Shown in pieces: positions 132 to 59,645 of a stretch of 64,000 nt of DNA (positions are counted from its first letter, which is position 1; each line of letters opens with the position of its first letter). The stretch covers positions 1 through 64,000 of the IMG/VR virus record IMGVR_UViG_3300030330_004772; one strand, 5' to 3'. The notes beneath the pieces are model-generated. The model saw only the letters and a list, made by a program, of their open reading frames with translations. It searched no databases and had not been told where the DNA came from. The translations under genes were made by a program, and so were the position numbers. The DNA comes from a virus. Lineage: Duplodnaviria > Caudoviricetes.

Positions 132-611
132 ATGAAAAAATTAATTAAAAAAATTTTAAAGGAAGAGTATAGTGAAAGAATTGAGGACTATAAAAAAATT
201 ATGTCTACACAATGGCAAGAATACTTCACTAACAAAAAAATATTACCTTCAATAATAAAATATTTAGATAGTATCATTAATATAGATATGATTGTTAAAT
301 CCGATAATTCCACAACGTATACCGTTTATTTTGACGATGTAGAACCTATCGCTAAAAATTATTGTTATGGGTGTAGTGGTACATTCCATTACCCTACAGG
401 TACACACGACATATATAATGTAGTACATGCGGAAGATAACGATCAATTTGTTAGTGCAGTTGAGTTAGCGATACTAGATATGTTCGGTGGTAAATCAAGT
501 GATATGGAATTTTATAGTATTATTTATCAATATTTATTTGATAAAATAAAAAAACATATGGATAATGATCCCATAAATGATTATCCTGAAGAACACGATA
601 TGGATTGGTAA
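132..611 (+). CDS. Hypothetical protein with MKKLIKKILKEE leader (putative internal head protein)
   Basis: 159-aa ORF; TAATG stop/start overlap with the next gene; leader shared with three neighbours. Confidence 0.8.
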   Translation: MKKLIKKILKEEYSERIEDYKKIMSTQWQEYFTNKKILPSIIKYLDSIINIDMIVKSDNSTTYTVYFDDVEPIAKNYCYGCSGTFHYPTGTHDIYNVVHAEDNDQFVSAVELAILDMFGGKSSDMEFYSIIYQYLFDKIKKHMDNDPINDYPEEHDMDW

Positions 612-1231
612 TGAAAAACCTTATTAGAAAAATATTAAAAGAGGAAACTGATGATTTAAGTAGAACAAAAAAAATCGATGCGTTAAATTCTATTGATTGG
701 ACAGGATATGGGGGAGTTATAGATTCTTTTGATGTTTTACAATACCATGGGGCATCTAATATGTTAGGGGAGATAACATTAGACAATTTAATCTTAACTA
801 GAAAACCCATTCAGTTAAAAGACTCTGGCAGATACGGATCTAGTAAGTCTGGTTGTATGGGATTTTATTTAACACCAAATAAAGGAGACTTGTTTAATCC
901 CAGTAAACGTATATATCCTAAAGCTTCATCTAAATACGCTTTTGAGAAAGCTTTTAAAAATGCAGACTATGTGGGAAGGGCAAATTCAAAAGCAATGATA
1001 TACGAAGTCATAATCGATCCAAATGCAATCATTGTAGATTATTATCCTGGTGGTTGTTTAGGTAAAGCATTTAGTAAAGGTCAACAGGACGCAGAACAGA
1101 TAATGTTAGATAATGCAGATGGTTTTTATGGTGCGGGCGAAATTGCAATAACAAATAAAAATGTTATAAAATCTATTACACTAATTGAGAGTGCATCGGT
1201 TGAAAATATAATGAGTAAATGGAGAAGTTAA
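611..1231 (+). CDS. ADP-ribosyltransferase-fold protein (H-Y-E type) with MKNLIRKILKEE leader
   Basis: Start moved to ATG 611 (TAATG overlap). Motifs YHGAS ... GFYLT ... KYA ... ADGFYGAGEIAITNKNVIK match the ART core pattern; recognised by eye. Confidence 0.6.
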   Translation: MKNLIRKILKEETDDLSRTKKIDALNSIDWTGYGGVIDSFDVLQYHGASNMLGEITLDNLILTRKPIQLKDSGRYGSSKSGCMGFYLTPNKGDLFNPSKRIYPKASSKYAFEKAFKNADYVGRANSKAMIYEVIIDPNAIIVDYYPGGCLGKAFSKGQQDAEQIMLDNADGFYGAGEIAITNKNVIKSITLIESASVENIMSKWRS

Positions 1232-2097
1232 TTAGGAAAATATTAAAAGAGGAGACACCAAACTTTAACAAGTTTGAATCGGGTGTATTTAAAATTATCG
1301 ATAAGGTTGGTATTGAAAAGTTTATTGGTGAGTATCTTAGAGATATGGGGCTAGATGTTGACGAAGAGGAAAATATTCTTTTTGAATACTTTAATGCGTA
1401 TGGTGGTGGATGTGATGACTATATTAATTTTGTATTAGAGGCAGAGGAAATTTCAAATATGTTTTACGATGGCGATTATGGTATACAAAATATGGTAAAA
1501 AGGTTTTTAGAAGATGATTATGATTATACGTATGATGGTTACGAATGTTATTATGACGAATATCAATTAGATGATATTAATGAAGAGAACATGAAAATCA
1601 TAATAAAAATATATAAATCACAAAAAGATGAAGATGAAACCTTAAGAGAATTTATTAAAAATGGTGATTTAGAAAGTGCGATTGGTTGTGCATATAGTGA
1701 CGCACAACAAAATGCCGATATAAATGCATTACATGAAGACTTTTTAGATGGGGTACATGAAGTAACCGATAAAATAGAGGGTAAATGGGATTGGGATACC
1801 CACACATTAAAAGGTAGAATATCGGTTTGTGAGATAATGAATCATGAAGACGCATTAGAGATACTATCAGAAAGTTTACAACACGGCTATGACTGGAATG
1901 AAGTCGTTAGTGCCATAGTTGAAAGGGAGTGGGAAGATGTTTGGAATGGTGATGAAGGAGATGTTTTATTCGGTGAACCAGTAACTATAGATGAGTATAG
2001 ACATTTCAGATATGGTGGTGCAGGAACAATAGATAAACAAGAATTTAATGAGTACTTATATAGTAGATTACATGATGAGTATAGATCTTTTATGTAA
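1219..2097 (+). CDS. Very acidic hypothetical protein with MEKLIRKILKEE leader
   Basis: 292-aa ORF, D/E/Y-rich, overlapping the previous stop. Confidence 0.8.
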   Translation: MEKLIRKILKEETPNFNKFESGVFKIIDKVGIEKFIGEYLRDMGLDVDEEENILFEYFNAYGGGCDDYINFVLEAEEISNMFYDGDYGIQNMVKRFLEDDYDYTYDGYECYYDEYQLDDINEENMKIIIKIYKSQKDEDETLREFIKNGDLESAIGCAYSDAQQNADINALHEDFLDGVHEVTDKIEGKWDWDTHTLKGRISVCEIMNHEDALEILSESLQHGYDWNEVVSAIVEREWEDVWNGDEGDVLFGEPVTIDEYRHFRYGGAGTIDKQEFNEYLYSRLHDEYRSFM

Positions 2098-2149
2098 TTA
2101 CACATATTTATTTATATATAAGACACTTATAATCTAAATTTTTTATAAT

Positions 2150-2269
2150 ATGAAAACAAGAAGAGGTTCTATTAGACTAACTGAACAAGACTTAGTAAAG
2201 TTGGTTAAGGATTTAAATGTTAAGACAAAGACTGTAAAATCTAAAGTTTTAGCAACAAGTTCAAAATAA
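2150..2269 (+). CDS. 39-aa basic micro-protein (MKTRRGSIRLTEQDLVKLVKD...)
   Basis: Read manually; ATATTTAT motif upstream (2104-2111); leader resembles those at 7822, 23650 and 24989. Confidence 0.6.
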   Translation: MKTRRGSIRLTEQDLVKLVKDLNVKTKTVKSKVLATSSK

Positions 2270-2353
2270 AAGATTATATCATATAATCAAAAATATTCAC
2301 TTTATTAATAAAAGTACGCAAAATTTTATCCACTTAACTCATATTTATATTAT

Positions 2354-3223
2354 ATGAAATCTCTCATCAGAAAAATACTTAAAGAAGAAACGCAACAAAG
2401 ATCACTAAGTGATGTAATATTTGATGATTTAGTTAGTACATTTAACGAAGAAGTATTAATTTATGATTGGGGTCCTGAATATAGTAATATGATTAAGGCA
2501 ATTAAGAATATTATTAATAATGCTGCCATACCACATATTGAGGATGTTTATAGTTTAGAGTATTTTGAAAATGAGGATTTAATTAAACCTATTTTAGATA
2601 AATTTGTTAGATATTTGTATAACGATGATTATCCATTGGTTGGGGACACCATTGAAATGATTGAAATGGATGGAGAAGATCCAAACCCAATACTACCAGG
2701 AACAAAGGGTGTAGTAACTAGAATAGAGTCACAAGTTATTTCAGGTATACCTGAAGAACATTTATGGATTAATTGGGAAAATGGTAGAACTTTAAAAGTT
2801 TTATTACCACATGATAAAATTAAAATAATCAAAAGAGGTGAAAGCAGTAGAGGTGTTATTGAACGATTAGAGTTAATGGAAGATAAAATAGATGATTTTG
2901 TTGATTTTGTAAGTGATGATTTAGAATTAGATGATAACTTTACCGTAGATATTACAAATGATTCTGACGATGTAGAAACATTGGCAAGTTACGATATTAA
3001 CAATAATGAAGTAACAGTATTAGGTAAAGATAGAGCTTTACCAGATATCATTCGTTCTGTTGCACATGAATTAGTTCACCATAAACAAAATGAGAGAGGT
3101 GAATTAACAGGTAGACAAGAAGAGGGTGAAGATGGTTCACCATGGGAAGATGAAGCCAATGCAAAAGCCGGAGAACTTGTTCGTAAATATGGTAGAGAGA
3201 ATCCTGAAATTTATGAAACGTAA
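2354..3223 (+). CDS. DUF4314-like domain plus zincin metallopeptidase-like domain, MKSLIRKILKEE leader
   Basis: GDTIEMIEM...PGTKGVV...INWENGRTL (DUF4314-like); HELVHHKQ (HExxH) with downstream EDEA third ligand. Confidence 0.65.
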   Translation: MKSLIRKILKEETQQRSLSDVIFDDLVSTFNEEVLIYDWGPEYSNMIKAIKNIINNAAIPHIEDVYSLEYFENEDLIKPILDKFVRYLYNDDYPLVGDTIEMIEMDGEDPNPILPGTKGVVTRIESQVISGIPEEHLWINWENGRTLKVLLPHDKIKIIKRGESSRGVIERLELMEDKIDDFVDFVSDDLELDDNFTVDITNDSDDVETLASYDINNNEVTVLGKDRALPDIIRSVAHELVHHKQNERGELTGRQEEGEDGSPWEDEANAKAGELVRKYGRENPEIYET

Positions 3224-3615
3224 ATAACGTCTCCTTTATTTATATTATTTTTATCACAAAAACCACCATTAACTTCTATGTTATATGACGATCCGTTCGG
3301 TGGATAAACGTTATCACCATCAGGTTCCGCAGTAACAATGTCTAAAATAGTACCATTACTATCACAAAAAATCATATCTAAGGGAAATTTTACACCCTGC
3401 ATATGATAATATGTGGGTGATATCTCATCGAATAATATACCACAATAATCACACATAGAATTCATCCCTAAAGCGCCTGTCATTTTTTGTTTATTTGTTT
3501 GTGCATATTCACACTCAATAGTAACATCATTATCATCACTATTTTTTATAACAACGTTTTTTTTATTTGGAAAGGGGTGTTTAACCATTTCATTTAAAAT
3601 ATCTATAAATTTCAT
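3211..3615 (-). CDS. DUF192-family protein
   Basis: Start moved to ATG 3615 (MKFIDILNE), right after an ATATTTAT motif. EYAQT...GA..., HMQGVKFPLDMIF, EVNGG...GD motifs. Confidence 0.7.
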   Translation of the reverse strand: MKFIDILNEMVKHPFPNKKNVVIKNSDDNDVTIECEYAQTNKQKMTGALGMNSMCDYCGILFDEISPTYYHMQGVKFPLDMIFCDSNGTILDIVTAEPDGDNVYPPNGSSYNIEVNGGFCDKNNINKGDVIYVS

Positions 3616-5904: not shown

Positions 5905-7551
5905 ATGAAATACGTAATTAGTGAAAATCAATATACTATTCTATTAAGGGAAGATAGAATAGATTTTTTAAAAAATCAGTTCGTAATAGATCCAAAATTA
6001 TTGGATAGATCGACAAATGGTGAAAACGATGAAGAAGAATTTGAAGATGGTGATAGACCTGCTGGTGGGATGAAAAAATCTAAAGAAAAAGTAGAACCAA
6101 TACAGGGTCATGATGGTTTAGATATTGCATATATAGTAACAAATAAAAAAGGCAAAAGTAAAGTAGTTTTAACAGATGAAATCTTTACTGATATAGTAGA
6201 TGCAGATCCAACTAGGAAAAAAGAATTTGTACAGTGGATGATTACGGTATTTATGAGACATCTAAAAGAAGGAGATATTGAACAAGCAATTAGATTTATA
6301 ACCGAAGATTTACCTGAGGCAAATGAATTTTTAACTGTCTTTGATAGGGTAAGAAAGAAAAAATCATTTAAAAGAGACGCGTCTAATAGGGCAAATGCAC
6401 CTGAAAATGTAGCCGATATCACCCAATACAATGATTTAGCACAATTATATGATGTAGTTAGTCCATTTATGGGAGATGATTCCGAAGATAATTCCTTATG
6501 GAATAAACTAAAGAAGCATATTGATTTAGGTACTGCTAAATTAGCATATAGAGATAATGATGTATTAGTATACATGCCACAAACATTAGAAGCTAGTTGT
6601 GAACCATTGGGTGGTGGTATGGCATCTTGGTGTACGGCTAACCGTAATGCATTAAATAGTAATCATGATAGTTCTTATTTTGCTAGATATAGAAGAAATA
6701 ACCCTAAACCAGATGGTAGTTTGTCAGATTACTATGTGGTAATGCCTAAGAAGTTATTTGATGGTGAAAACGAAGATATATACCCACTACAGTTTCATTT
6801 TGAGTCTGGACAATTACACGATAGGAGTAATAGAAGTATTGAAAGGGGCGAATTACCAAACATACTTTCTAGATTTCCGAAGTTAACTGAATTTTTTAGA
6901 AAAGAATTAGGGGCATTAGCAACAGGTGATATTAAAAATGGTTCAGGATTAATGAATAGTAAATACTTAACTTACTTAACTAAGTTTGGAGGTAACATTA
7001 AAGATGTAATTGATGACGAAATATGGGATGCAGGTGTCCAGTCAATACGTAAATTGGCAAGTGAACAAAAAGGTGCATTACAAAACAACAAATATTTAAA
7101 GTGGTTAATGGAAAACACTGAAGGTGTAGAAATTACTGATTATCTTAATAAAGATATGGCGACTTTAGACTTTAGTGATATGGACTTAAAAGTTTTTCCA
7201 GATGTTTCAGAATTTACAAAAGCAGAAAGAATATCTTGTAATAATTGTGGATTAAAGAGATTACCATCTACAGAACATTTACCTGATAATATAGAAGTAT
7301 TAACTATGAAAAATAACCAAATATCTGAAGCACCTTTAGATGGATACGGAAAATTTAAAAATATGTTCGTAATTAATTTACAGGAAAACCCAATAACTAA
7401 AGTTAATATAGAACCACTAAATCAATTAGTGAATGAAAGATTAGCGAGATTTGTTGGATCTATTGATGTGGATAAGTTATCACCTGAAAACCAAAAAGAG
7501 TGGAATACGTTTTTAGAGGATCCTAATAATATAGGATATTTAGTTGCTTAA
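5905..7551 (+). CDS. Large protein with C-terminal leucine-rich repeats and MKYVISENQYTILLRED leader
   Basis: About four LRR-like units (LDFSDMDLKVFP, ISCNNCGLKRLP, LTMKNNQISEAP, INLQENPITKV); central SWCTA...LQFHFESGQ..D..N segment. Confidence 0.7.
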   Translation: MKYVISENQYTILLREDRIDFLKNQFVIDPKLLDRSTNGENDEEEFEDGDRPAGGMKKSKEKVEPIQGHDGLDIAYIVTNKKGKSKVVLTDEIFTDIVDADPTRKKEFVQWMITVFMRHLKEGDIEQAIRFITEDLPEANEFLTVFDRVRKKKSFKRDASNRANAPENVADITQYNDLAQLYDVVSPFMGDDSEDNSLWNKLKKHIDLGTAKLAYRDNDVLVYMPQTLEASCEPLGGGMASWCTANRNALNSNHDSSYFARYRRNNPKPDGSLSDYYVVMPKKLFDGENEDIYPLQFHFESGQLHDRSNRSIERGELPNILSRFPKLTEFFRKELGALATGDIKNGSGLMNSKYLTYLTKFGGNIKDVIDDEIWDAGVQSIRKLASEQKGALQNNKYLKWLMENTEGVEITDYLNKDMATLDFSDMDLKVFPDVSEFTKAERISCNNCGLKRLPSTEHLPDNIEVLTMKNNQISEAPLDGYGKFKNMFVINLQENPITKVNIEPLNQLVNERLARFVGSIDVDKLSPENQKEWNTFLEDPNNIGYLVA

Positions 7552-7821: not shown

Positions 7822-7956
7822 ATGTCAAATAAAAAAACAGTAAGATTAACAGAATCTGAGATGGTTACTTTAATCGAAAACATTGTAAATCAAGTTAAAT
7901 CTGAAAAGAAAAGAAAAATAAACGAGTCTAAGAGAAGAGTTGCTCGTAGAAGGTAA
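7822..7956 (+). CDS. 44-aa micro-protein: leader plus Arg-rich tail (...KINESKRRVARRR)
   Basis: Read manually; ATATTTAT at 7778-7785; VRLTESEMVTLIE leader. Confidence 0.65.
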   Translation: MSNKKTVRLTESEMVTLIENIVNQVKSEKKRKINESKRRVARRR

Positions 7957-7966: not shown

Positions 7967-9568
7967 ATGAAATCATTAACTGAAGAACAGAAACGTATGA
8001 GAGAACTTATGGGATTTACCTATAAGGATAATTCACATGATATATTATCGGAACAAAATATGGATTTACTTTTAGAGGGTAAATTAAAAGGTAGAGGTGA
8101 TACAAGAACAGGTATTGCGAATTTTACTGCTTATAGTCAGGAAGTTGCATACTTTAAAAATATAAAGATGTTCGATGATTTTAGAAGAGGTCAAAGATTT
8201 GAAATTACTAGCCATAGGGATAATACTGCAGGACCTACACAACAAAATATGATAATTGATCCCCCAAAACCTAAACCTGAGCCTATTGACGTAATAGAAG
8301 AAGAACCAATTAGTATTAATATACCATTTAGTGTAGATGATCCATTTCAATTTGATGATGATGTGTTATATACTGAAGCAGAAAATAAATTAAATAAATT
8401 TATTTCTGATGTTAACAATTTAAGAGAAAATAAATTATATGACTCAAAAGTTATAGACGCATATTATGAATTTTTAAAATCTAAACCTATTTCAGTTTTT
8501 GGTTACGCATCTATAGACGCATTATCAAACTATAAAATAACTGGTAGTGACAACACATCTTGTGGTGGTAAAGAAAGGCTTAGACATGACTATAATAAGT
8601 GTTTATCTAAAGTTAGAGCAGAAGCAATTATAGAAAAATTAAAAGCTAGTGATGGTATATTAAGTGAATTAAATTATATTGCAAAAGGAATGGGTGAAAC
8701 TAATAAATTTAGTGGTAAAAAATGGAATAATAATGTGGCAGATCCCACAACAGACAAAAATTCACCATTCACTACGAAAGATACTAAAAAAGATAGAAAA
8801 TTTAGTGTTGTTTTACCTACTTTCACATACGAAGAACCTGCACCGCCCACACCAGAACCCATTGATGATACATATCCAGGATGGGTAGAACCTAGAATTA
8901 CTCTATATAATCCTGAAGCATTAAAAGTGTTACATAGTGATCCAGACTACTCCCAAAGAGATGAAAGGGGACAATATAAGGATGAGAACATTCAGAATAT
9001 AAACACAATTTCTTTAATGGATAATAAGTGTATTACATTTGATGAAACAATAGAAAATAAACAACACCCACATAAATTAAAAGATGGTAGAGTGGTCTAC
9101 CCATTGAAGGGGGATTTGCGAATTATGTCTCCTGATGAATGTTACAAAAATAAATTTGATATAGGTTCTTTTTTAGGAATAGGTAAAAAAATTATTGGTT
9201 GTACTGTTGATCAAAACAGTAAAAATTTATTATTTAGAGAATCACAATTAGATCATGTCTTAGGTAAAGGCTGGATGGAAAAATATTTTTTCCCATTCTG
9301 GGTATTTGAGACGGGGAAATACCCAATGGAAATATCTAAAAAAGAAATAACCGTTTATGATAACTCTAATACGGCATATACATTTCCTTATAAATCAGAT
9401 AATTTATTATATGGTAATGTTTCTACACCAAAAAAATGGATTGCAAGACCCTTTGGAAGTAACCAAATCATTATAAATAATAGGGGATGGTATACCATTA
9501 AGAAACAAGAAAATTATTCAATACAAGACGATGGTAATAATGGTCAATTTCCATTTGGTGGGGGGTAA
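7967..9568 (+). CDS. Protein with degenerate OmpA/MotB C-terminal-like domain, MKSLTEEQKRMRELMG leader
   Basis: Start moved to ATG 7967. FQFDDDVL...GYAS...NKCLSKVRAEAI...AKGMGET...DRKF follows the OmpA_C pattern. Confidence 0.6.
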   Translation: MKSLTEEQKRMRELMGFTYKDNSHDILSEQNMDLLLEGKLKGRGDTRTGIANFTAYSQEVAYFKNIKMFDDFRRGQRFEITSHRDNTAGPTQQNMIIDPPKPKPEPIDVIEEEPISINIPFSVDDPFQFDDDVLYTEAENKLNKFISDVNNLRENKLYDSKVIDAYYEFLKSKPISVFGYASIDALSNYKITGSDNTSCGGKERLRHDYNKCLSKVRAEAIIEKLKASDGILSELNYIAKGMGETNKFSGKKWNNNVADPTTDKNSPFTTKDTKKDRKFSVVLPTFTYEEPAPPTPEPIDDTYPGWVEPRITLYNPEALKVLHSDPDYSQRDERGQYKDENIQNINTISLMDNKCITFDETIENKQHPHKLKDGRVVYPLKGDLRIMSPDECYKNKFDIGSFLGIGKKIIGCTVDQNSKNLLFRESQLDHVLGKGWMEKYFFPFWVFETGKYPMEISKKEITVYDNSNTAYTFPYKSDNLLYGNVSTPKKWIARPFGSNQIIINNRGWYTIKKQENYSIQDDGNNGQFPFGGG

Positions 9569-10305: not shown

Positions 10306-11535
10306 ATGAAAAAAATAAAAACATTAAACGAAGAAATAAAAAGAATAAAATCCCTTTTTCACTATGAAGAAGGTTCTACTATTCTTGAAACTATAGACAT
10401 TTATGAACAAGATGAACAAAATGAACTAGGTTTATTAGGTCCCCCAAACTGCAATGTATCCGAAGAAATTAACCATATTGGTGAATTTAGTGCAACAAAA
10501 TCAGATGCAACTAAACCATTTACAGATTTTATAACTAAGATGAAGACACAAATTGATGGTAATGCAAAATTAAAGAAGTTGATTGATGAGGGTGGTAAAG
10601 TTTTTATTAGTGAATTAACTGTTATGGGTGGTGCTAGTAATCATTATAATAAAAAAGCAACTGCTGCAGATGTAGAAAATGATTATAAAACACCATACGC
10701 TGGTAATATTAAACAGGATTCAGGTTATAAAGCCAATCGTGGATATGCGAAAAGTAGGGCGTTGAATTTAGTAAATGCAATGGTTAAGAAATTACCTGAA
10801 ATGGGAGTTAAAGTAGCTGAGGAAGTATTAGAAAATGCCAAAAACAATATAGACGTTAAAGTTATCAACACAGGAGGTAAAAATGATAGTAGTAGTACTG
10901 CAAAAAATCCTGGTCAGATTGTTAAAATTTATATGAAAATTTGTGGTGAAGGTGGTGATCCAGATATTCTAAAGTGTTTTGAGTCTGCAACTATTAGGGT
11001 AGATTATGATAGTAATAGTCCTGATCAGACACATGTTTGTAATCATGCAGTTTATGATATTTACGCCAATGGGGTTAAATTAGAAAGAACCGATGGTGTG
11101 TCATATGCTAGTTTAAATAATGATTATAGACAATCGACAAATTTTAAACCACAAAAAATATCAAATGATGGAAACAATAAGGGTGGTGCTTATGTTTATA
11201 ACGAATTTAAATTAACTATGGATGGTGTAAACAAAGAATTTTTTAATGAGGAAAATTTATATAAATATAATGGTGGTTTAGTTGTTAGTGCTAAATGTGT
11301 GAGGACAAGTCACGGTTCATGGGCAAATAACAGTGATTGTCACGAATGGGTGGGAGACATTAAATTATCGACTTCAGACGGGGTAGAAACAGTAGAAGTA
11401 GGACAAACTGATCTTTCAGGAACTGGATTAAAATTTAGTACACCTAATAATTTTGACGCGATAGTACCACTTGCAGGATTTGAGGCTTGTAAAGATTTGG
11501 CAAATAACAATGATAAACCAGTGGGGGATCAATAA
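10306..11535 (+). CDS. Protein with highly degenerate OmpA-like segment, MKKIKTLNEEIKRIKSLF leader
   Basis: Start moved to ATG 10306, after ATATTTAT at 10281. MGGAS...NRGYAKSRALNL...GQIVKI segment; Cys/His-containing C-terminal domain. Confidence 0.55.
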   Translation: MKKIKTLNEEIKRIKSLFHYEEGSTILETIDIYEQDEQNELGLLGPPNCNVSEEINHIGEFSATKSDATKPFTDFITKMKTQIDGNAKLKKLIDEGGKVFISELTVMGGASNHYNKKATAADVENDYKTPYAGNIKQDSGYKANRGYAKSRALNLVNAMVKKLPEMGVKVAEEVLENAKNNIDVKVINTGGKNDSSSTAKNPGQIVKIYMKICGEGGDPDILKCFESATIRVDYDSNSPDQTHVCNHAVYDIYANGVKLERTDGVSYASLNNDYRQSTNFKPQKISNDGNNKGGAYVYNEFKLTMDGVNKEFFNEENLYKYNGGLVVSAKCVRTSHGSWANNSDCHEWVGDIKLSTSDGVETVEVGQTDLSGTGLKFSTPNNFDAIVPLAGFEACKDLANNNDKPVGDQ

Positions 11536-18933: not shown

Positions 18934-20637
18934 ATGAAAAATTTTGTAAATCCAAAAAAAATAAAAGGTCAAGACAAATTAGATAGAATTAAAGATCTAA
19001 TGGGTAAAATGAGTACCCTAAATGAGAGCACTTCACTTTCAGAAATAGAAAATGTGAAAAAAGGTGCGAATGGAGTAATCTATGGGATAATAAGAGAAAA
19101 TCATAGTTATTTTATTAAAACTACTGAAAAAACTTCTGGTACATTAGTTGCAGAAGATTTTAATTATATCGGTGGTTTACAAAACAAAAATATTGAGAAA
19201 TATGGTTCTTATGCTGAAGCATTAAAACAATTGAATTTAAAATTTGATATGCTGAATGAATCTTTTGGTATTAAATCTAATACTAATTTGTTTGAGTCTG
19301 ATGCGGTAGAAGTAAAAGAAGCAAATGCTAGTGGAGTTGTAGTTAAAGAAGAACCTGAAGTTATTGAAGATCAAAAAACGGTAATTAAAGTAGATGCCCC
19401 CAAGTCAGAGCCGGCACCAGTAGAAGATGAAGTAGGTGGTGAAGATCCATTTGCTGACGAAGAAGGTGGTGAAGATCCATTTGCTGATGAAGAAGGTGGA
19501 GAGGAAGAAATATCGATGGATGTAGAAGAAGAAGGTGAAGAAGATGGAGACGGATATACTAAAAAAATTCAAAAACTAACTGGTAAAATCGGTCAGATGT
19601 TAAGAGATAAAGATGAACCAGATGCGGAATTAGATAAATACGTTATTAATTCTATAGTATCTGCAATTGATTGGGAGGAAATTCCTGATGAAGATGTTGA
19701 AGACATTATTGCTAAAATTGAGGGTGAAGATGAAGAAGATGGTGAATTAGAAGGTGGTGATGAAGTAGGTGGTGAAGATCCATTTGCTGACGAAGAAGGT
19801 GGTGAAGATCCATTTGCTGACGAAGAAGGTGGTGAAGAAGAATTAGCAGAATCTGAAGAAATTAAAGAAGAAAAAGAGACAATTAATATTTCTAAAAAAC
19901 AAATGGAAATGTTAAAAAAAGATGGTAAGTGTGATTGTGGTGATGTAACTCTTAAATTAGATGAATCTGATGATGAACTAGAAGAAGGAAATAAATTTAG
20001 TGGTGAATTAGCTAAAGCTAAAAAAGAAGGTAAAGATGAATTCGAAGTAGATGGTAAAACATATAAAGTAAAAGAATCTAGAAAATTTTCTAAAAAACAA
20101 TTAATGGAAAATTTTTTAAAAAAAAACATTAATGAGTCTTTAAACAAAATTCTTAAAGAGAATGAATTAGTTTGTGAAGTATGTGGTGAAATGCATGAAG
20201 GTGATTGTCATGTCGATGAAGATCTAGATATTACAAATCAAACTTCAGAATTAGCGGGTGACGATGTAGGTGTAGTACACGAAGAAAATATGTCTGTAGT
20301 AGATGCAATTGCTACAGGACAAAATTACTTACAAGCGTCTGGAGATTTAGATAGAGATGGTGATCAAATACCAAATAGATTAGATATGGATAGTAATATG
20401 GATGGTGACTTAGATCACCCAACTTTTGATGATGAGGAATTTATAGAAATAGATTTTGATTCATTAATGGGTAATTCACCAGCACCAACTAAAGAACCAG
20501 GAATTGCGCCACCATCAACTAGACCGGGTAAAAAGAAACCAAGATGGAAAAAAATACCTAGACCAGAAGTTAACCCAAAACCAAAGGCAACAGATAGAAG
20601 AAAATTTCATTTAGGTAGAAAAGGTATGTATAGATAA
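18934..20637 (+). CDS. Acidic, repeat-rich putative prohead core/internal protein
   Basis: Many (I/L)xE sites; GGEDPFADEE repeats; DLDRDGDQIPNRLDMD Ca-binding-like motif; Pro/Lys-rich C-terminus. Confidence 0.6.
   Translation: MKNFVNPKKIKGQDKLDRIKDLMGKMSTLNESTSLSEIENVKKGANGVIYGIIRENHSYFIKTTEKTSGTLVAEDFNYIGGLQNKNIEKYGSYAEALKQLNLKFDMLNESFGIKSNTNLFESDAVEVKEANASGVVVKEEPEVIEDQKTVIKVDAPKSEPAPVEDEVGGEDPFADEEGGEDPFADEEGGEEEISMDVEEEGEEDGDGYTKKIQKLTGKIGQMLRDKDEPDAELDKYVINSIVSAIDWEEIPDEDVEDIIAKIEGEDEEDGELEGGDEVGGEDPFADEEGGEDPFADEEGGEEELAESEEIKEEKETINISKKQMEMLKKDGKCDCGDVTLKLDESDDELEEGNKFSGELAKAKKEGKDEFEVDGKTYKVKESRKFSKKQLMENFLKKNINESLNKILKENELVCEVCGEMHEGDCHVDEDLDITNQTSELAGDDVGVVHEENMSVVDAIATGQNYLQASGDLDRDGDQIPNRLDMDSNMDGDLDHPTFDDEEFIEIDFDSLMGNSPAPTKEPGIAPPSTRPGKKKPRWKKIPRPEVNPKPKATDRRKFHLGRKGMYR
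19426..19842 (+). repeat. Duplicated coding block (19426-19509 and 19759-19842), each with two 30-bp GGEDPFADEE units
   Basis: gaagatccatttgctga(c/t)gaagaaggtgg(t/a) at 19441, 19471, 19774 and 19804. Confidence 0.85.
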
Positions 20638-21037: not shown

Positions 21038-21521
21038 AATGAAAAAAGTAAGAATTTACGAATCAGAAATTAAAAGGGCAGTTAGAAGAAAATTGATGGA
21101 AAATATTTTAGATGAAGAAGAACAAATGACTGTATATGAAAAAGGTTCTAATCCTGATCTAGAACAAATGGAAAAAGGGGAACAGTTTGGTGTTAAAGAT
21201 AACGAAGGTACTATACGTACTTTTACTGCAAATGAATCTGAAGAGATGACTGAAGAGTTTGAAATGAAAGATACATATAGTAGAAAAAATTATAGACAAT
21301 CTCCTAGAGAAAGAGATATTGAGGGGGTATTCGGACAATATGGTGAAGAAATCCCACCATCAGTATTAAGATATATGAGAAAAAATCCAGAGAAGATAGT
21401 TAAAAGATTATATGATATATATGGACAACAAATGTTTGATTATATATCACCTAACTTACCTGATAACCCACAATACGAAGTTAGTATTGAGGATATCGTT
21501 AGAGAGAACCTAAGAAAATAA
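21030..21521 (+). CDS. Hypothetical protein with VRIYESEIKRAVRRKLME leader
   Basis: 163-aa ORF overlapping the previous stop. Confidence 0.75.
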   Translation: MDKMKKVRIYESEIKRAVRRKLMENILDEEEQMTVYEKGSNPDLEQMEKGEQFGVKDNEGTIRTFTANESEEMTEEFEMKDTYSRKNYRQSPRERDIEGVFGQYGEEIPPSVLRYMRKNPEKIVKRLYDIYGQQMFDYISPNLPDNPQYEVSIEDIVRENLRK

Positions 21522-22143: not shown

Positions 22144-23571
22144 ATGAAAAAGGTAAAAATTAAAATAGACTTAGATAAAATTACTAAAAAAGTAATTAAA
22201 GAACACCAAATGTTAAAAGGTGAGTTAAAAAGAATTGAAAAACTTAATGAAGGTATAGAATATGACCCTAATCACCCAGAAAGAATGAATCCTAATTTAG
22301 AAGATAAATTAAGAAGTGGTGAACATACCTTTGGTAGAAATAAGGGTTTACCTGCGACAGGTACTAATCAAAACTTTTCAGAAAAATTAGCAAGTTCTCG
22401 TTTTAAAGATATTATTAATAAAGTCAAAAGGTATCACGGTATTCAACAAATCGATCCTCAAATGATGATGCAGATGATGATGATTATGCAACAAGTTGCA
22501 CAAATAGAGTCACAACACAAAGATGCATTAGAAAGATTAGCAGTAGAAATTGTAAGTGAGGAATTTGATATTCCAGATGATATGTTAGATGCGGAATTAT
22601 TACCTCCGGGTTCACCATTAGATTTAGATCAAGATGAAGGTGGGGAAGAAGAAGAACAGGAAGAGTTTCAGTCTAAGAGTGCTGAACGAATGGAGGAATT
22701 AGAAATTGAGGTAGATAAAAGAAATGTAATTAATGCATTAATGCAGGGAGCAGCCAAAAAAGGACACTATATCTTCCATATGGTTGCAGATGAGTTAGAC
22801 AGTATTGATCCTAGATTAATGAGTTTATATGGTAAACTAATGTCTTTAGCTGATTTCCAATATTGGGTAATACCTGATCAAGCAATGGGTGGACAAATAG
22901 GTGGAACAGAAAAAATTAAATGGGAAAAACCTAAAGATGAAGAAGGTAATGAACAAGAGGATGAAGAAGAAGAACCAGTGGTAGAAGCTAAAGCTTGGAT
23001 ATTCCCATTATTAGTACATGAACTTATTAAAGGTGCTATGGAATTAGCCGCATCCAATTGGGGGGAAGGTCATTTAGATTTTGAAGAACAGAAACATGTT
23101 ATTGATAGAGCGGACACAATAGAGAATGAAATATGGGGAATGAGATTAGGTCCAGGTATGTGGGAAAAATTTGTAGCTTGTATAGATGATGATGATTACA
23201 AATTAAAACAATGGTTCTTTCATGAACTTACTAAGTTACCGGCACAACAATTTCATACCTTTATGAAAGAGATATTGTCTAATAGTGCAAAATGTAAAGA
23301 AGTGATTGCACACTTAAAAGAACTACACTTAGCAGACGAAGATGAAGAATTAGATGATTTAATTATTGGTGATGAAGGTAACTTTGAGGATGGTTTAGAT
23401 GACTTAATGGTTGACGCAGGTGTTGCACCACCACAAGATGAACCAAGTGAAGAAGTAGATGTAGAAGTTGATTATAGTGAAATGTCACCTAGAGAAATAC
23501 AAGATCTTATAGATGATGCATTAGATGCGGGTGATTTTGATACCGTAGGTATGTTATCTAAGTATTTATAA
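22144..23571 (+). CDS. Acidic hypothetical protein (putative internal head protein)
   Basis: 475 aa; N-terminal KKVIKE...KLNE; followed by a terminator. Confidence 0.75.
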   Translation: MKKVKIKIDLDKITKKVIKEHQMLKGELKRIEKLNEGIEYDPNHPERMNPNLEDKLRSGEHTFGRNKGLPATGTNQNFSEKLASSRFKDIINKVKRYHGIQQIDPQMMMQMMMIMQQVAQIESQHKDALERLAVEIVSEEFDIPDDMLDAELLPPGSPLDLDQDEGGEEEEQEEFQSKSAERMEELEIEVDKRNVINALMQGAAKKGHYIFHMVADELDSIDPRLMSLYGKLMSLADFQYWVIPDQAMGGQIGGTEKIKWEKPKDEEGNEQEDEEEEPVVEAKAWIFPLLVHELIKGAMELAASNWGEGHLDFEEQKHVIDRADTIENEIWGMRLGPGMWEKFVACIDDDDYKLKQWFFHELTKLPAQQFHTFMKEILSNSAKCKEVIAHLKELHLADEDEELDDLIIGDEGNFEDGLDDLMVDAGVAPPQDEPSEEVDVEVDYSEMSPREIQDLIDDALDAGDFDTVGMLSKYL

Positions 23572-24988: not shown

Positions 24989-25255
24989 ATGAAAAAGATA
25001 AAATTAACAGAAAAAGATTTATTGAGGATAGTTAAGGAAACTATCAAAGAAGATAGGAAAACTGAAAATTATATGTTTTTTAGTAATCTTAAACAAATGA
25101 GAAGACAGATTGATATGATGTTGGAAAATTTAAATCCTCATTGGGTAGATTCAACATTGGCAGATGGGCACGACTGGGCAGATGATAAGATAAGTGAATC
25201 TAAAACAAATATTGATAGTGTATTCGATTTCTTCATGAATAAAAAAGAAGAGTAA
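24989..25255 (+). CDS. Small protein with MKKIKLTEKDLLRIVKETIKE leader
   Basis: Start moved to ATG 24989. Confidence 0.75.
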   Translation: MKKIKLTEKDLLRIVKETIKEDRKTENYMFFSNLKQMRRQIDMMLENLNPHWVDSTLADGHDWADDKISESKTNIDSVFDFFMNKKEE

Positions 25256-25515
25256 TGAGTTTACCATTTAAAGAAAAGTTAGAAAATGGATATCACATTA
25301 GAACATTCTCTAATGAAACTGATAGTGGTGAATTAGTGTGGCATAGAGACAAAGAAGATAGAATTGTAGAATCTATAGGTGACACTAACTGGATGATTCA
25401 ATTAGACAACGAAATACCTAAACCTTTAACTGAAAGAACATTTATACCTAAAGAGGTATATCATAGAGTAATAAAAGGGGATGGAGATTTAAAAGTAAGA
25501 ATTAAAAAACTATGA
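25255..25515 (+). CDS. Small cupin-like beta protein
   Basis: ELVWHRDKEDR...W.IQLDNE.P...FIPKEVYHRVIKG resembles cupin motifs; TAATG overlap. Confidence 0.6.
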   Translation: MSLPFKEKLENGYHIRTFSNETDSGELVWHRDKEDRIVESIGDTNWMIQLDNEIPKPLTERTFIPKEVYHRVIKGDGDLKVRIKKL

Positions 25516-37169: not shown

Positions 37170-38060
37170 ATGAGAATTAAAAAGAAAAATATATTATTAG
37201 AATCCCTTTTAATTGATATAATTGGTGAATTTACACCACAAGAAAAGAAAATATTATCAGTATTACACAATAAATTTGGTATGGGATCTGGTAAAATAGA
37301 AAAATCTTGGAATTTTGATAAGTGGGCAGCAGCTGCATTTTTAATTGAGGAGTTTGAGTTACCGTATGATATAGCACATGATTTAGCATCTACGTACTTT
37401 TGGAATGGTGAAAAATTGTTTAATGAGTTTGAACCACTTAGGAAAAAAAATAATAGAAGTGACTTATTTATGAATCACGCATTTAGAGATATACTAGATG
37501 ACTACATTGAGTCAAACAAAACTGAAGATAATAATTTTTATCTAACAAATCCCGTAGAATATAACGTTAAAACTCAAAATGAAAGTGAGGTACTTCCCGG
37601 CATTATATATCAAAGTTTTCCACCAAGAAGTTATAAAGAATTGGAGGAGTCTAGAAAAGAAGCAAATGAAGTAAAATTATCTGTAAGACCTATGGTTTGG
37701 TCTACCTATAACGGTGTTATGTTATATATCCAACCTAGTCAAGAAGATATTATAGAACCAAAGGATATAGAGACTACTAGTTGGGATACGATGCGTAATA
37801 TGGGTCTAACTGCTGCAATACGATTAGATTATTATAAAGATGAAGATGAAAAATCTCAAAATTATCTTCAAGGTAAATGTGAATATAAATTTGGGCATGA
37901 GTATAAAGATGAGGGTATAATATGGAATGAGGACATAAAATTACCTGAAGTTTTATCTAAGGAAAAGGTTCATGAATTTATAGATATGTTACTAGAAAGA
38001 TTACGTTCTACACTTAATGGAATGACGTTTATTTATGGTAAAGGTGTAAAAGACGACTAA
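37170..38060 (+). CDS. Late hypothetical protein (MRIKKKNILLES leader)
   Basis: 296 aa; ATATTTAT at 37145. Confidence 0.75.
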   Translation: MRIKKKNILLESLLIDIIGEFTPQEKKILSVLHNKFGMGSGKIEKSWNFDKWAAAAFLIEEFELPYDIAHDLASTYFWNGEKLFNEFEPLRKKNNRSDLFMNHAFRDILDDYIESNKTEDNNFYLTNPVEYNVKTQNESEVLPGIIYQSFPPRSYKELEESRKEANEVKLSVRPMVWSTYNGVMLYIQPSQEDIIEPKDIETTSWDTMRNMGLTAAIRLDYYKDEDEKSQNYLQGKCEYKFGHEYKDEGIIWNEDIKLPEVLSKEKVHEFIDMLLERLRSTLNGMTFIYGKGVKDD

Positions 38061-50263: not shown

Positions 50264-50302
50264 ATACCCTATAAATATTTAATATGATCATTAAAAAAAA
50301 AA

Positions 50303-53329: not shown

Positions 53330-53477
53330 TTTTTATCTCTTCTAGTTCCTTCTCTAAAACTTTTAACTTTTTTTTATAGTCTTCAGTCATCATATGTCCG
53401 TTATAGTCCCCCATAACAATTTCTAATTTTACTCTTTGAATTTCTTTTAATAATTCATCTAATAATCTTTTTTTCAT
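53322..53477 (-). CDS. 51-aa coiled-coil protein
   Basis: Read manually (MKKRLLDELL...EEIKND, TAG); fills the gap between dUTPase and the GT gene. Confidence 0.55.
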   Translation of the reverse strand: MKKRLLDELLKEIQRVKLEIVMGDYNGHMMTEDYKKKLKVLEKELEEIKND

Positions 53478-53482
53478 TTCAT

Positions 53483-54070: not shown

Positions 54071-54072
54071 AT

Positions 54073-54636: not shown

Positions 54637-54666
54637 ATTATAATATTTTTAATAAAGATAGGTATT

Positions 54667-57913: not shown

Positions 57914-57933
57914 AAATTAATAATTATTCTTAA

Positions 57934-58284
57934 TTAATTATTATTTTGGTTTTGTCCACTAATATAATCAGGATAATAAGGTTTGTTAGGTCCATAACCG
58001 TTTGGTCCTGTAGTTGATCCATACTTAGCTTCGTTTTTCGCTATTAATTGATTTCTACCAGTTCCTGGTTCAGATGGGTTACCGTTTATATCAATATCAG
58101 TACCCCCTTCAGTGGTATTAATTAAATCACTATTTCCACCTGTACCTTTACCTTTATCATCTCCGTCACTCATTGCGTTAGGAACACCTTCACCATATTT
58201 TTTACCATCTGAGTTTTGGTATTCATTTACTCGTAAATTATCTACTCTAAATTTTTCACCTAATTCTTCTAATTTTGTTGGCAT
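57934..58284 (-). CDS. G/N/D-rich hypothetical protein
   Basis: 116-aa ORF in the operon. Confidence 0.7.
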   Translation of the reverse strand: MPTKLEELGEKFRVDNLRVNEYQNSDGKKYGEGVPNAMSDGDDKGKGTGGNSDLINTTEGGTDIDINGNPSEPGTGRNQLIAKNEAKYGSTTGPNGYGPNKPYYPDYISGQNQNNN

Positions 58285-58288
58285 AATT

Positions 58289-58825
58289 TTATATTTTTGA
58301 TTTATATGTTATTAATTCTTTTATTTTTTCTACTTCTTCATAAACTGGTTTACCTCTTTCTATTTGTCCACTTATATCTTTATGTAGTTTTGGTAGTTTA
58401 ATTTGTATAGTGTCTCTATTAACTTTATTTACATTTTTATTATGTGTTTTAATAAACTGATTAGATAATCCTGTTTTACTTTTAATTTCTTTTGGTTTTT
58501 TAATTGCTTCTCTTTCTTTATTGAGTGTAGACTCAACCCAATTATTCATAGTTTTACCACCATTTAATCTATACTCCATGTCTTTATAATCACCATCGAA
58601 AGAATCAAACCAATTTTTAATTCTCTTCATTTGAGCGTATTCTATTTTTTTAACTTCTAAAATACCTCTTGCCCTTTTATAACCTTCAGATGGTTTACCA
58701 TCTTTATTTAAAGATTCATAAGTTTTAACCGCATTAGATAAACAATTAAGTACATAGTCTGGACAATTCCAATACTTACCTCTCAATTCACTATTACCAC
58801 CTTTATTATTCTTTCGATTCGCCAT
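58289..58825 (-). CDS. Basic hypothetical protein
   Basis: 178-aa ORF overlapping the previous stop. Confidence 0.7.
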   Translation of the reverse strand: MANRKNNKGGNSELRGKYWNCPDYVLNCLSNAVKTYESLNKDGKPSEGYKRARGILEVKKIEYAQMKRIKNWFDSFDGDYKDMEYRLNGGKTMNNWVESTLNKEREAIKKPKEIKSKTGLSNQFIKTHNKNVNKVNRDTIQIKLPKLHKDISGQIERGKPVYEEVEKIKELITYKSKI

Positions 58826-59645
58826 ATTTTATTTTATCCCCTAATATTTCTTTATGTTTATCACTTAATTCACTTATCGAAACATTTTTTAATAAATGAT
58901 TTAAAATAATTGCTAATTCTTCTCCGTTAATATCTTCTTTTTCAATTAAATCTAATAATAAATTTAATTTTCTAATAACCATAGGTTTTTCAAAAGTTCT
59001 CTTTAATTCAACTATATCCGCAATCTCCACATCATCACCCACTAAATCTTGTTCGTTAGTTTTTTTAACCATACCTTTATCATCTTTTTTAGATAAAAAC
59101 ATTTCGTCAACTAAACCTTTCATTTTTTCTTCACTTAAATAGTCAAAATTAAATTCTGTATCATAAGGTAAAGAATAACTTGCCCAATCTTCCGAAGGAT
59201 TTAAATCATAATTTGGTGCTTTTGGTTTATAAAAGTGTTTAGTAATATCTTTTTTTGCAAATTTTCTTCCTCTCTCTCTATCATCTCTACTATATTTTTT
59301 CTTAGAAGAATGAAATGCATCTAAATCTTGTAAAGACTCAGGTGATATATCCTCATCCATTAAAGTTGTTTTAGTGTCGCCAGTTGATTCTTCTTCATTT
59401 ACCACATAACTATAATTAATACCGTAATAAGGTCCACCATAAATAAAATATGCTTCAGGACCTTGTGTTGCTCCTCTAACAAAATCATCAGTAGTTTTTT
59501 TAGATTTAATAACTGAAGGAGTTGCCTTGTAATTATCATTTCTATCTATCATAGAACCATCTACATCAATTAATTCATTAATTTCTTCTTCTTTCATTTC
59601 ATTAATATATTTATCAATGTCGGACTTTTTATATGTTTTATTCAT
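58806..59645 (-). CDS. Late hypothetical protein (...KYINE...EINE leader)
   Basis: 279 aa; ATATTTAT upstream on the minus strand (59662-59669). Confidence 0.75.
   Translation of the reverse strand: MNKTYKKSDIDKYINEMKEEEINELIDVDGSMIDRNDNYKATPSVIKSKKTTDDFVRGATQGPEAYFIYGGPYYGINYSYVVNEEESTGDTKTTLMDEDISPESLQDLDAFHSSKKKYSRDDRERGRKFAKKDITKHFYKPKAPNYDLNPSEDWASYSLPYDTEFNFDYLSEEKMKGLVDEMFLSKKDDKGMVKKTNEQDLVGDDVEIADIVELKRTFEKPMVIRKLNLLLDLIEKEDINGEELAIILNHLLKNVSISELSDKHKEILGDKIKYGESKE

Follow-up and report, generated by a model that had tools for sequence, protein, structure and literature searches.

The stretch of DNA analysed here (the window) comprises the first 64 kb of a 74.7-kb contig (29% GC) from an uncultured, distant T4-like phage. 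Its head and packaging set consists of a gp17-type terminase, a gp20-type portal, a gp21-type protease, an acidic scaffold and a gp23-type capsid protein. The following features belong to this module or adjoin it:

31520..31570, + strand: head-module protein with a kept h-h-x-E (h, hydrophobic) at residue 17, from conservation in relatives
33147..33833, + strand: prohead protease, Peptidase_S77 (T4 gp21 family), from Pfam and PDB matches; His and Ser present
33948..35291, + strand: scaffold-like protein, 31% Asp+Glu, 16 [ILV]-x-E sites, C-terminal helix kept in relatives
35328..37076, + strand: major capsid protein, Gp23 family (PF07068 at 244 bits)
37170..37202, + strand: short leader of 11 amino acids ending L-L-E|S, on the gene after the capsid gene; kept in relatives

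The protease matches Pfam family PF03420 (Peptidase_S77) at 82.7 bits (cut-off 27) and T4 gp21 (PDB 5jbl) with an E value of 1.5e-16, and its catalytic His and Ser align with two Ala of the crystallised chain. Asp and Glu make up 139 of the 447 scaffold residues. The capsid protein has the L-L-N-E|A reported in an initial annotation of this DNA, at residues 57-61. Its candidate maturation sites are V-K-E44, L-Y-E51 and L-N-E60|A61 (the last at nucleotides 35496-35510), all three just upstream of the block that aligns with residues 28-62 of mature T4 gp23; as cuts, the first two are no less possible than the last.

Leader classes of unrelated late proteins

In at least 16 late proteins (about sixteen to twenty in all), whose bodies are unrelated, the N-terminus is a conserved leader of one of at least five classes. 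These tags are 11-30 residues long, and each class ends in hydrophobic-x-Glu, which is the rule of the T4 head protease gp21. The window has classes A, B (which includes a long form), C and E; class D comes from relatives. Class A, with the consensus M-K-x-L-I-R/K-K-I-L-K-E|E and a net charge of +4, opens four proteins; at these, as at all other coordinates named in the initial annotation, the N-terminus is the one it had described:

132..164, + strand: class A leader of 11 amino acids, ending L-K-E|E, on a 159-aa protein
611..643, + strand: class A leader on a 206-aa protein with an ADP-ribosyltransferase-fold body (611-1231)
1219..1251, + strand: class A leader on a 292-aa acidic protein
2354..2386, + strand: class A leader on a 289-aa protein (DUF4314 and an HExxH motif)

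Class B has the consensus K-I/L-T/S-E-x-Q/D/E-h-x-x-h-h-x-E and a net charge of +2:

2150..2269, + strand: class-B-like leader (R-L-T-E) with a short basic tail, a 39-aa ORF; leader ends in D; kept in relative L083
4793..4843, + strand: class B leader, 17 aa, on a Hydrolase_2 cell-wall hydrolase
5905..5952, + strand: class B variant leader, 16 aa, on a 548-aa homologue of a PA5oct virion protein
7822..7878, + strand: class B leader, 19 aa, on a 44-aa basic peptide
21039..21101, + strand: class B variant leader, 21 aa, ending L-M-E, on a 160-aa protein
22144..22203, + strand: diverged class B leader, 20 aa, ending V-I-K-E, on a 475-aa protein
23650..23697, + strand: class B leader, 16 aa, on a 442-aa protein
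24989..25039, + strand: class B leader, 17 aa, on an 88-aa protein
26770..26817, + strand: class B leader, 16 aa, on a 280-aa protein directly upstream of the terminase

Six of these sites (4793, 5905, 7822, 23650, 24989 and 26770) agree with the initial list. Two others needed amendment: the leader at 2150 ends in D, not E, and the leader assigned to 21030 is real but its true start is 21039, inside the 21030 ORF. The diverged member at 22144 was absent from that list; the orthologue of its product in relative L041 has a canonical class B leader. An AF2 model of the 26770 product gives low pLDDT for residues 1-20, and a short helix there (residues 7-15) breaks at Glu16.

When a class B profile was searched against 1063 proteins from 81 sources (80 related loci plus the contig), 110 of 112 significant hits fell within the first 25 residues, a region that holds 8.5% of all residues. 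Anchored on residues 1-9 only, 58 of 60 distinct leaders, a set spanning 16 body families, have an [LIVM]-x-E that ends at residues 15-18 (at residue 16 in 46 of the 58), against 9.5% of interior control windows.

Class C and the shorter forms comprise the following:

7967..8053, + strand: class C leader, about 29 aa, with L-x-E-E and an R-M/I-K/R-x-L-M-x-F helix, ending I-L-S-E, on a 533-aa protein
10306..10389, + strand: class C leader, about 28 aa, ending I-L-E, on a 409-aa protein
18934..19026, + strand: conserved 31-aa N-terminus with R-I-K-D-L-M, ending L-N-E|S, weakly class-C-like
25512..25544, + strand: class E leader, 11 aa, ending I-N-E|S, on a 417-aa protein; similar in length and pattern to the capsid-targeting sequence (CTS) of T4
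3589..3615, - strand: possible short leader, 9 aa, ending L-N-E, on a DUF192 protein; ambiguous, as one relative has K for E

Membership of class C is clear at 7967 and 10306; the N-terminus at 18934, also placed there initially, is weakly related (E about 1-9 with the class C profile) and has I-K-D-L-M in common with the C-terminal end of the scaffold. These leaders had been taken to end at L-x-E|E, but the conserved helix comes after that site, and an end some 28-30 residues in, at h-L-S/T-E, seems more likely. Among the short forms, those at 25512 and 37170 are kept in relatives, that at 3615 is ambiguous, and those at 57913 and 59645 occur at background frequency, in keeping with the original caution that short forms are weaker evidence than classes A-C.

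Conservation and position of the leaders

N-terminal 30-mers of the contig proteins yielded 15 pairs with an ungapped score of at least 40, whereas shuffled N-termini, internal windows and C-terminal windows each yielded 0-1. Motif cores searched with no Met anchor lay within the first 30 residues in 38/40 cases for class A, 94/97 for class B and 12/12 for class C. The leaders are kept in more than 90 related viral contigs, nearly always N-terminally, and there precede dozens of body families that have no BLAST link, with a hydrophobic-x-Glu end far above background. By class, the body families number 11-14 for A, 15-16 for B, 6 for long-form B, 9 for C and 5 for D. BLAST between the leader-bearing bodies found no related pair (all pairwise E > 0.2), and the bodies differ in folds or domains. 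Information content falls right after the terminal Glu; P3 is L/I/V/M in all leaders tabulated, which the selecting patterns partly required.

These results bear on whether the leaders could be an artefact of composition and paralogy, that is, K/I/L/E-rich N-termini of an AT-rich genome together with diverged paralogues. Some neighbouring leader genes are indeed paralogues (25512 with 26770, and 21039 with 21540), and the forms at 57913 and 59645 do not exceed background. Against this stand the absence of similarity in shuffled and internal controls, the extreme positional enrichment at N-termini and the different folds of the bodies, and we consider an artefact highly improbable as a general account: for classes A-C it is refuted by the controls and positional tests, and it stands for short forms only.

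Leader genes share a late-type ATATTTAT box with the genes for terminase, portal, protease and fibres; the association proposed at the outset holds. Head, fibre and leader genes have the box 3-38 nt upstream, and 24 of its 46 sense copies fall within the 2% of the sequence just upstream of starts. As the A/T-rich codons of the leaders adjoin this box, the conserved element might act on RNA or translation, as an A-rich start for high late expression, with the peptide incidental. The class A copies, however, differ in their synonymous codons and have unrelated upstream DNA, which places the signal in the peptide rather than the DNA. Conservation extends over 16-30 codons and tracks amino-acid similarity (the terminases of the relatives are 75-99% identical), highly expressed late genes such as those for capsid, portal and fibres lack the element, and an internal in-frame copy exists. 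An RNA-level role is therefore very unlikely.

That internal copy is found in relative L003, in the order leader-module-leader-body, and the two leader copies share 47 identical nucleotides; it makes most sense as a joint that would be cut. Fused forms such as those of L003 and L041 are exceptional, most candidate cargo being encoded by separate genes with a tag each. Leader and body also combine in further ways: one body family bears different leaders in different lineages, one locus has retained its leader while the body was swapped, and in relatives the leader of the 4793 gene precedes other wall hydrolases.

The leader genes form a cluster immediately upstream of the head module. A strict hydrophobic-hydrophobic-x-E with its end at residues 8-20 is present in 20/44 genes to the left of position 38130 and in 4/36 to the right (Fisher p = 0.0012), where tail, glycosyltransferase and fibre genes lie; the looser h-x-E at residues 9-20 is found in 42% of all other N-termini of this AT-rich proteome. 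Within the window, leaders were not found on tail, fibre, terminase, portal, protease or glycosyltransferase genes, which for the glycosyltransferases bears out the initial annotation. The leaders are charged and amphipathic, and a Sec/Tat-type hydrophobic h-region after a basic n-region was not found in them. By contrast, the N-termini at 10204 and 12197 of this window are true signal peptides.

Identity of the candidate cargo

The initial annotation had named a varied cargo, not all of which was upheld. A Pfam scan of the 611 body gave no hit. Its predicted structure, of low confidence (pLDDT 58.8), was compared using VIA-align, and almost all of the best 40 matches listed were ADP-ribosyltransferases (ARTs), headed by the catalytic domain of diphtheria toxin (Z 7.0, rmsd 3.6 Å, 141 aligned); H46, Y86 and E177, candidates for an H-Y-E-type triad, are invariant. 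The claim of an ART has support at the level of the predicted fold. Distant homologues of this body in another lineage begin with a different 10-residue leader, which ends in L-R-E. The wall hydrolase was confirmed by the Hydrolase_2 match of the 4793 product, and the 'zincin' of the 2354 product reflects its HExxH motif and a weak M78 match. The LRR and OmpA matches are below Pfam cut-offs, and for the 'WYL' domain winged helix is the better term. The 26770 product combines a helical domain with a C-terminal winged helix, and the 442-aa protein of 23650 is a chain of basic Cys-rich modules with h-x-E sites between them.

The 5905 body matches EST35_0205 of phage PA5oct (E 7e-6, 24.6% identity over 48% of the query), which is annotated 'structural protein, ESI-MS/MS' and has been confirmed in virions by mass spectrometry. 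EST35_0205 begins with a CTS-like 11-mer of its own that ends in L-Y-E, and it sits beside EST35_0204, annotated as hypothetical, which we read as a terminase from its sequence. The two proteins are thus alike in their homologous bodies and in a CTS-like start next to head packaging genes; they differ in phage lineage and in leader sequence type.

Discussion

The leaders are probably capsid-targeting propeptides of this distant T4-like phage, cut by its gp21-type protease; from the sequences we infer both targeting to the prohead and cutting after the Glu. The idea of a multi-class capsid-targeting code, put forward in the initial annotation, fits every computational test run as regards classes A, B and C and the leader at 25512, but does not extend to 57913 and 59645 or to 18934 as a member of class C.

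The leaders could instead be uncut docking helices for some other late partner, such as the tail, the baseplate, a membrane complex or the ClpB-like and Hsp20 chaperones, with no head cargo. They are amphipathic and helical, the contig encodes a ClpB-like ATPase and has an Hsp20 hit, and envelope-directed bodies (wall hydrolases, weak OmpA-like matches) would suit a role outside the head. We nevertheless regard this as unlikely, given that it offers no role for the near-invariant terminal h-x-E or the drop in conservation behind it, that leaders are missing from the recognisable tail, baseplate and fibre genes, that the leader genes are grouped directly upstream of the head module and that the L003 copy is best understood as a cut joint. 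Short, shared, N-terminal leaders might also be recognition tags for a modifying enzyme. Yet no radical-SAM or other peptide-modifying family was present among the best 25 of 36 Pfam families from 53 further proteins of the window, on a contig that is itself partial, or among the Pfam hits of the scanned leader-bearing and head proteins, and the S77 protease is the one enzyme whose specificity matches; we give such tags very little credence.

In T4, gp21 follows a defined cleavage rule and a 10-residue CTS (PMC9026906), whose sequence has been confirmed (10.1101/2021.01.19.427310), is removed by this protease from IPI, IPII and IPIII, as is the propeptide of Alt (PMC9026906). The present phage resembles T4 in its head module (gp20, gp21, gp22-like and gp23 families) and in N-terminal leaders, of about 10-17 residues, that have helix-spaced hydrophobics, end in L/I/V-x-E and precede unrelated bodies. 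Its ART cargo would parallel Alt, and its small basic proteins the IPs. Classes A-D, however, share with the CTS only a pattern (a Met-Lys start, hydrophobics spaced as in a helix and an h-x-E at the end), and class E resembles it in length and pattern yet has other residues; the resemblance is thus functional and not one of leader homology. In T4 there is in essence a single CTS family besides the Alt propeptide, whereas here at least five classes co-exist, with leaders that reach about 30 residues, net charges of +4 (A) and +2 (B) against -1 for the T4 CTS, and sixteen or more candidate cargo proteins per genome, far beyond T4's handful. Wall hydrolases and winged-helix proteins as candidate cargo, and an internal leader copy as joint, are further differences.

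The processed head and ejection proteins of the giant phages phiKZ, 201phi2-1 and SPN3US offer a second comparison: a diverged gp21-like protease acts after Glu on many (8-19) head proteins, whose propeptides are thought to aid incorporation (PMC5694885, PMC10052503, PMC9026906). There the cut follows S/A/G-x-E and the propeptides are long and family-specific, whereas here P3 is L/I/V/M, as in T4, and a few short tags are shared. Polyvalent proteins, known from phages and from conjugative elements, have ART, peptidase and lysozyme-type effector domains that are predicted to be delivered with DNA and are encoded beside virion genes (PMC5512222); there the domains are fused in a single giant polypeptide, unlike the mostly separate tagged genes found here.

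Two points speak against head cargo for individual proteins. Wall hydrolases behind a leader could simply be the endolysin, unpackaged, and the 26770 gene occupies the position of a small terminase subunit and encodes a DNA-binding-type winged helix. For the set as a whole, a cargo of sixteen or more species, well above the T4 number, and the frequency of h-x-E in an AT-rich proteome likewise count against this reading.

Targeting to the capsid for delivery with the DNA is the most likely function of the tags. During prohead assembly, a leader would dock its protein onto the scaffold core; most leaders are basic amphipathic helices and the scaffold is extremely acidic. As the leaders are not homologues of the T4 CTS and classes A and B have the opposite charge, the docking partner may differ from that in T4. 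After closure of the shell, the protease would cut behind the Glu and free the cargo inside the head, and upon infection an ART-fold enzyme, wall hydrolases, winged-helix proteins and basic Cys-rich peptides would exit with the DNA. With a tag that is short and separate from the body, a gene placed behind a leader could become new cargo.

A T4-type head module in an uncultured clade

The 64-kb window is the first part of a single contig of 74,685 bp with a GC content of 26–31%, and it encodes a T4-type head module:

27654-29447, large terminase
29500-31479, Portal_T4 portal
33147-33833, Peptidase_S77 prohead protease
33948-35291, very acidic scaffold-like protein
35328-37076, Gp23-family major capsid protein

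The prohead protease is similar to T4 gp21 (solved chain 5jbl, E = 1.5e-16), and its His and Ser align with two positions that are Ala in the crystallised chain, which we take to be engineered catalytic residues. Judged by capsid protein, the cultured phages nearest to this one (~30–43% identity) are Rhodothermus RM378, Microcystis Mel-JY01 and Flavobacterium phage immuto; a megablast search of the head module against cultured phages gave no match. Because a related terminase is encoded on 229 IMG/VR stretches, of which 80 (74–99% identical) were kept, the phage is a member of a large uncultured clade. The signal peptides of the window's secreted proteins end in S-Y-S-Q, a hint of a Bacteroidota host. 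Tandem M-E-E-G-Y/H-D repeats occur in the scaffold-like protein, whose central 245 residues comprise 108 acidic and 13 basic ones. Beyond the window, all ORFs at the contig end (G000:C1:72400-74413) are of low complexity, on the minus strand and rich in L, S, Y and R; a repeat-rich gene read in reverse may account for them.

Leader classes on unrelated late proteins

The initial annotation had described short N-terminal leaders, ending in hydrophobic-x-Glu (h-x-E), on about 20 unrelated late proteins. Each coordinate that it named was checked and largely stood as described. The leader-bearing genes, designated by start coordinate, are as follows; the true start lies a few codons within the longest ORF at 611, 7967, 10306, 21039, 24989 and 26770.

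132, 611, 1219 and 2354: class A, all present
2150 (39-aa ORF), 4793, 5905, 7822, 21039, 23650, 24989 and 26770: class B, all present
22144: diverged class B member, with an orthologue in the related contig L041 that starts with canonical class B
7967 and 10306: class C, clear
18934: proposed as class C but matched by the class C profile at an E of only about 1–9

The similarity between N-termini was all but absent from shuffled sequences. Fifteen protein pairs reached an ungapped BLOSUM score of at least 40 among N-terminal 30-mers, versus 0–1 pairs in each control (residues 31–60, residues 61–90, C-termini and three shuffles). A class B profile built from seven copies in the window was run against the contig and 80 related loci (1063 proteins); of its 112 significant matches, 110 begin within residues 1–25, a stretch that makes up 8.5% of the residues searched. 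When motif cores were searched without a Met anchor, 38/40 (A), 94/97 (B) and 12/12 (C) fell within the first 30 residues. An artefact of composition has in its favour that h-x-E is common in this proteome; set beside these controls, it seems very improbable for classes A–C. Upstream DNA differs among leader copies and class A copies differ in synonymous codons, so the conserved signal is the peptide and not the DNA, and we give an RNA-level element hardly any credence.

Around relatives of the 2354 gene, ten loci have class A on many more bodies (the protein parts after the leader), class C on nine or more body families, a long form of class B (M-K-I-K-K-N-G ... L-T-E-S-D-L-K-R-I-V-K-R-x-L-x-E) and a class D (M-G-R-I-E-K-Q-K-R ... 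A-N-K-R-L-L-G-E|S). Together with class E, the 11-residue leader of the 25512 family, the variety of classes in the clade exceeds that listed initially. By conservative single-linkage, the body families number 11–14 for A, 15–16 for B, 6 for long B, 9 for C and 5 for D. The classes themselves were defined by patterns; when N-termini were clustered by single linkage at score 40, K-rich low complexity joined them all. A literature search with leader strings and motifs returned no biological paper.

Leader ends and the protease-type site

To avoid circularity, class B was anchored on residues 1–9 only. In 58 of 60 distinct class B leaders (16 body families), [LIVM]-x-E ends at residues 15–18, and in 46 it ends at residue 16; the rate in interior windows is 9.5%. 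Leaders that remain in place as uncut docking helices are a minor alternative that we consider improbable. The AF2 model of the 26770 product (pLDDT 85) has a short helix at residues 7–15 that breaks at Glu16, within a low-confidence stretch (residues 1–20), and classes A and B, aligned on the terminal Glu, carry ~2–4 bits up to that residue and ~0.5–1 bit directly after it. Class B has a second conserved site, L-T-E, at residue 7; in T4, a 7-residue propeptide is removed from Alt (PMC9026906).

The class C end first proposed, L-x-E|E, was not borne out, as the conserved R-I/M-K/R-x-L-M-x-F helix comes after that site. Conservation extends to h-L-S/T-E about 28–30 residues in, which is more likely to be the leader end. 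Class C as a copy of the scaffold C-terminal helix was rejected, the scaffold C-end giving no score with the class C profile; the I-K-D-L-M pentamer common to that end and the N-terminus of the 18934 product is a lead only. The C-terminal region of the portal has G-D-A-G-G and A-A-D-S repeats and a terminal I-L-K-E-E-E-K that resembles the end of class A. This resemblance is probably chance, with I-L-K-E-E expected ~0.2 times per proteome by a rough residue-frequency estimate, and I-L-K-E is found inside the 18934 and 31520 products too.

Short forms had been listed with more reserve. A strict h-h-x-E ending at residues 8–20 occurs in 20 of 44 genes left of 38130 versus 4 of 36 to the right (Fisher p = 0.0012), where tail, baseplate, sigma-like, glycosyltransferase and fibre genes lie; the looser h-x-E at residues 9–20 occurs in 42% of other N-termini. 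Individually, the short forms of 25512 and 37170 are kept in relatives, as is that of 31520, those of 57913 and 59645 are at background, and 3615 (a DUF192 protein) is ambiguous.

Genomic context and the late-type box

The box ATATTTAT was observed 43 times in the window versus 27.6 ± 5.1 expected. Of the 46 copies in sense orientation on the whole contig, 24 have their end no more than 40 nt ahead of a start codon; such positions make up ~2% of the sequence. The box stands in front of the terminase, portal, protease, 37170 and fibre genes, and also of the leader genes or operon heads 2150, 2354, 3615, 4793, 5905, 7822, 10306, 18616 (whose operon contains 18934) and 23650; by these positions, the proposed association of leaders with the box holds. 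Since the late terminase, portal, capsid, tail and fibre genes have the box and no leader, the leader is not a general feature of late translation.

The head module is immediately preceded by leader genes at 21039-27612. The last of them, 26770, is adjacent to the terminase gene and could encode the small terminase. Of 25 distinct orthologues, 24 keep its class B leader, even at body identities as low as 30%; VIA-align with the 26770 model detected no more than a winged helix at the C-terminus (last 80 residues; Z about 8, rmsd 2–3 Å over about 70 residues), and Foldseek returned nothing at E ≤ 0.001.

Other genes were noted in the same window:

9569-10204 (−): secreted protein, converging on the class C leader gene at 7967-9568
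11529-12197 (−): paralogue of the former, with a near-identical signal peptide, converging on the class C leader gene at 10306-11535
12261-14729 (−): full-length ClpB-like AAA+ chaperone (Clp_N, two AAA modules, ClpB_D2-small), with a late-type box in front (14749-14756)
44290-55926 (−): ~12 kb of glycosyltransferase genes and a GFO/IDH/MocA oxidoreductase, all without a leader

An Hsp20 match was also found among the window's proteins. Chaperones of the ClpB and Hsp20 kind are unusual phage cargo.

Proposed cargo bodies and their exchange

Stripped of their leaders, the bodies of the window give no pairwise BLAST match below E 0.2, and PHROGs and Pfam gave no family for most of them. Those with an assignment are:

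611: candidate ADP-ribosyltransferase (ART) fold, from a weak AF2 model
2354: DUF4314 with an HExxH motif
4793: Hydrolase_2
23650: basic Cys-rich modules
26770: helical domain and C-terminal winged helix

The model of the 611 body is weak (pLDDT 58.8) and the alignment shallow; among 1.84 billion proteins, a profile search turned up just two distant relatives. ADP-ribosyltransferases fill nearly all of the 40 best VIA-align rows, exotoxin A, PARPs, ParT and DarT among them; the diphtheria-toxin catalytic domain scores Z 7.0, and no more than 66 of the 48,161 chains score Z 2 or higher. H46, Y86 and E177 are invariant positions. Both distant homologues, from another lineage, have other short leaders ending in h-x-E, one being M-V-K-L-L-D-L-L-R-E. 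One homologue lies in tandem with a paralogue: L108:8001-9857, in an AT-rich lineage other than that of the window, encodes two ART-like bodies with a common 10-residue leader ending in L-R-E, followed by two small proteins with an M-K-K-S-E-L-K-x-M-I-K-E-E-type leader that also occurs in phage immuto. The 23650 gene (23650-24978) encodes a 442-aa chain of Lys/Arg/Cys-rich modules with acidic spacers that contain h-x-E sites; two modules match PHROGs of unknown function, and in relatives some of the modules stand alone as small genes, again preceded by this leader.

Among the window and two related loci, the body at the 4793 locus varies behind a constant class B leader:

4793-5620 in the window: Hydrolase_2
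11867-12418 in L085: T4-type Phage_lysozyme (E = 1.4e-24)
10459-11043 in L082: third body, with an A-T-E-S motif

No BLAST link joins these three bodies, each wall-active or a candidate for it; such leader-bearing hydrolases might be endolysins. Leaders are also found in fusions. L003:5739-7511 reads leader-module-leader-body, with an inserted P-loop-like module of ~300 residues that has a Walker-A-like G-x-x-x-x-G-K-S and no Pfam match; 47 nucleotides are identical in both leader copies, and the second has lost its Met. L041 holds an in-frame fusion of two adjacent leader genes. Tags for a modifying enzyme would be expected to have such an enzyme nearby; no radical-SAM or similar enzyme is among the Pfam families listed (best 25 of 36, plus other window scans), and we regard this explanation as highly unlikely.

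Comparison with known phages

The 5905 body matches EST35_0205 of phage PA5oct (E = 7e-6), which is annotated 'structural protein, ESI-MS/MS' and has its own 11-residue start, ending in L-Y-E, that resembles the T4 capsid targeting sequence (CTS). It is flanked by further MS-confirmed virion proteins and by EST35_0204, annotated as hypothetical, which we read as terminase-like. Searches (tblastn) with the 25512 and 18934 products gave no match among cultured phages and the 22144 product had one weak metagenomic match, so virion-proteome support is confined to the 5905 body. In cultured phage immuto, genes located upstream of the terminase gene bear similar leaders and the capsid protein contains I-V-S-E|A, and exact class B starts recur in other AT-rich viral contigs, in one case beside a portal gene. 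The class E leader is like the T4 CTS in length and hydrophobic spacing. In T4, gp21 cuts after Glu in (I/L)-x-E, and the 10-residue CTS is proposed to let T4-like phages load varied proteins (PMC9026906).

Interpretation

We think it probable, from these sequence patterns, that the leaders form a T4-style capsid-targeting or propeptide system expanded to several classes. The sequence tests fit the capsid 'address-label' proposal of the initial annotation in this form, with 57913, 59645 and the class C membership of 18934 taken out. Net charge is +4 for class A and +2 for class B, and 31% of scaffold residues are acidic, which suggests that basic leaders could dock electrostatically on the scaffold.

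A further, rather doubtful proposal is that the classes are distinct addresses and not drifted copies of one tag, each docking on a different prohead partner; these partners would be the acidic scaffold, the portal-proximal core and the inner shell surface. Classes A, B, long B and C occur together in 20-kb loci of the closest relatives, with D beside them in others (2354 homologues 57–96% identical across these loci), and the pairing of class and body is maintained in orthologues; we count both in support. If true, class would set cargo copy number, position and ejection order, a combinatorial code readable from sequence.

If the capsid-targeting reading holds, genomes would reveal directly which proteins are injected by uncultured T4-like phages of marine and fresh waters, a large and widespread group; among these proteins would be enzymes acting on the host in the opening seconds of infection. 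The T4 capsid-targeting principle would be old and general, diversified into several tags, and not a T-even peculiarity. It would permit quick exchange of cargo, as with three wall-active or candidate wall-active bodies behind one leader and the ART body behind different ones, and the leaders could be natural packaging tags for phages of Bacteroidota.
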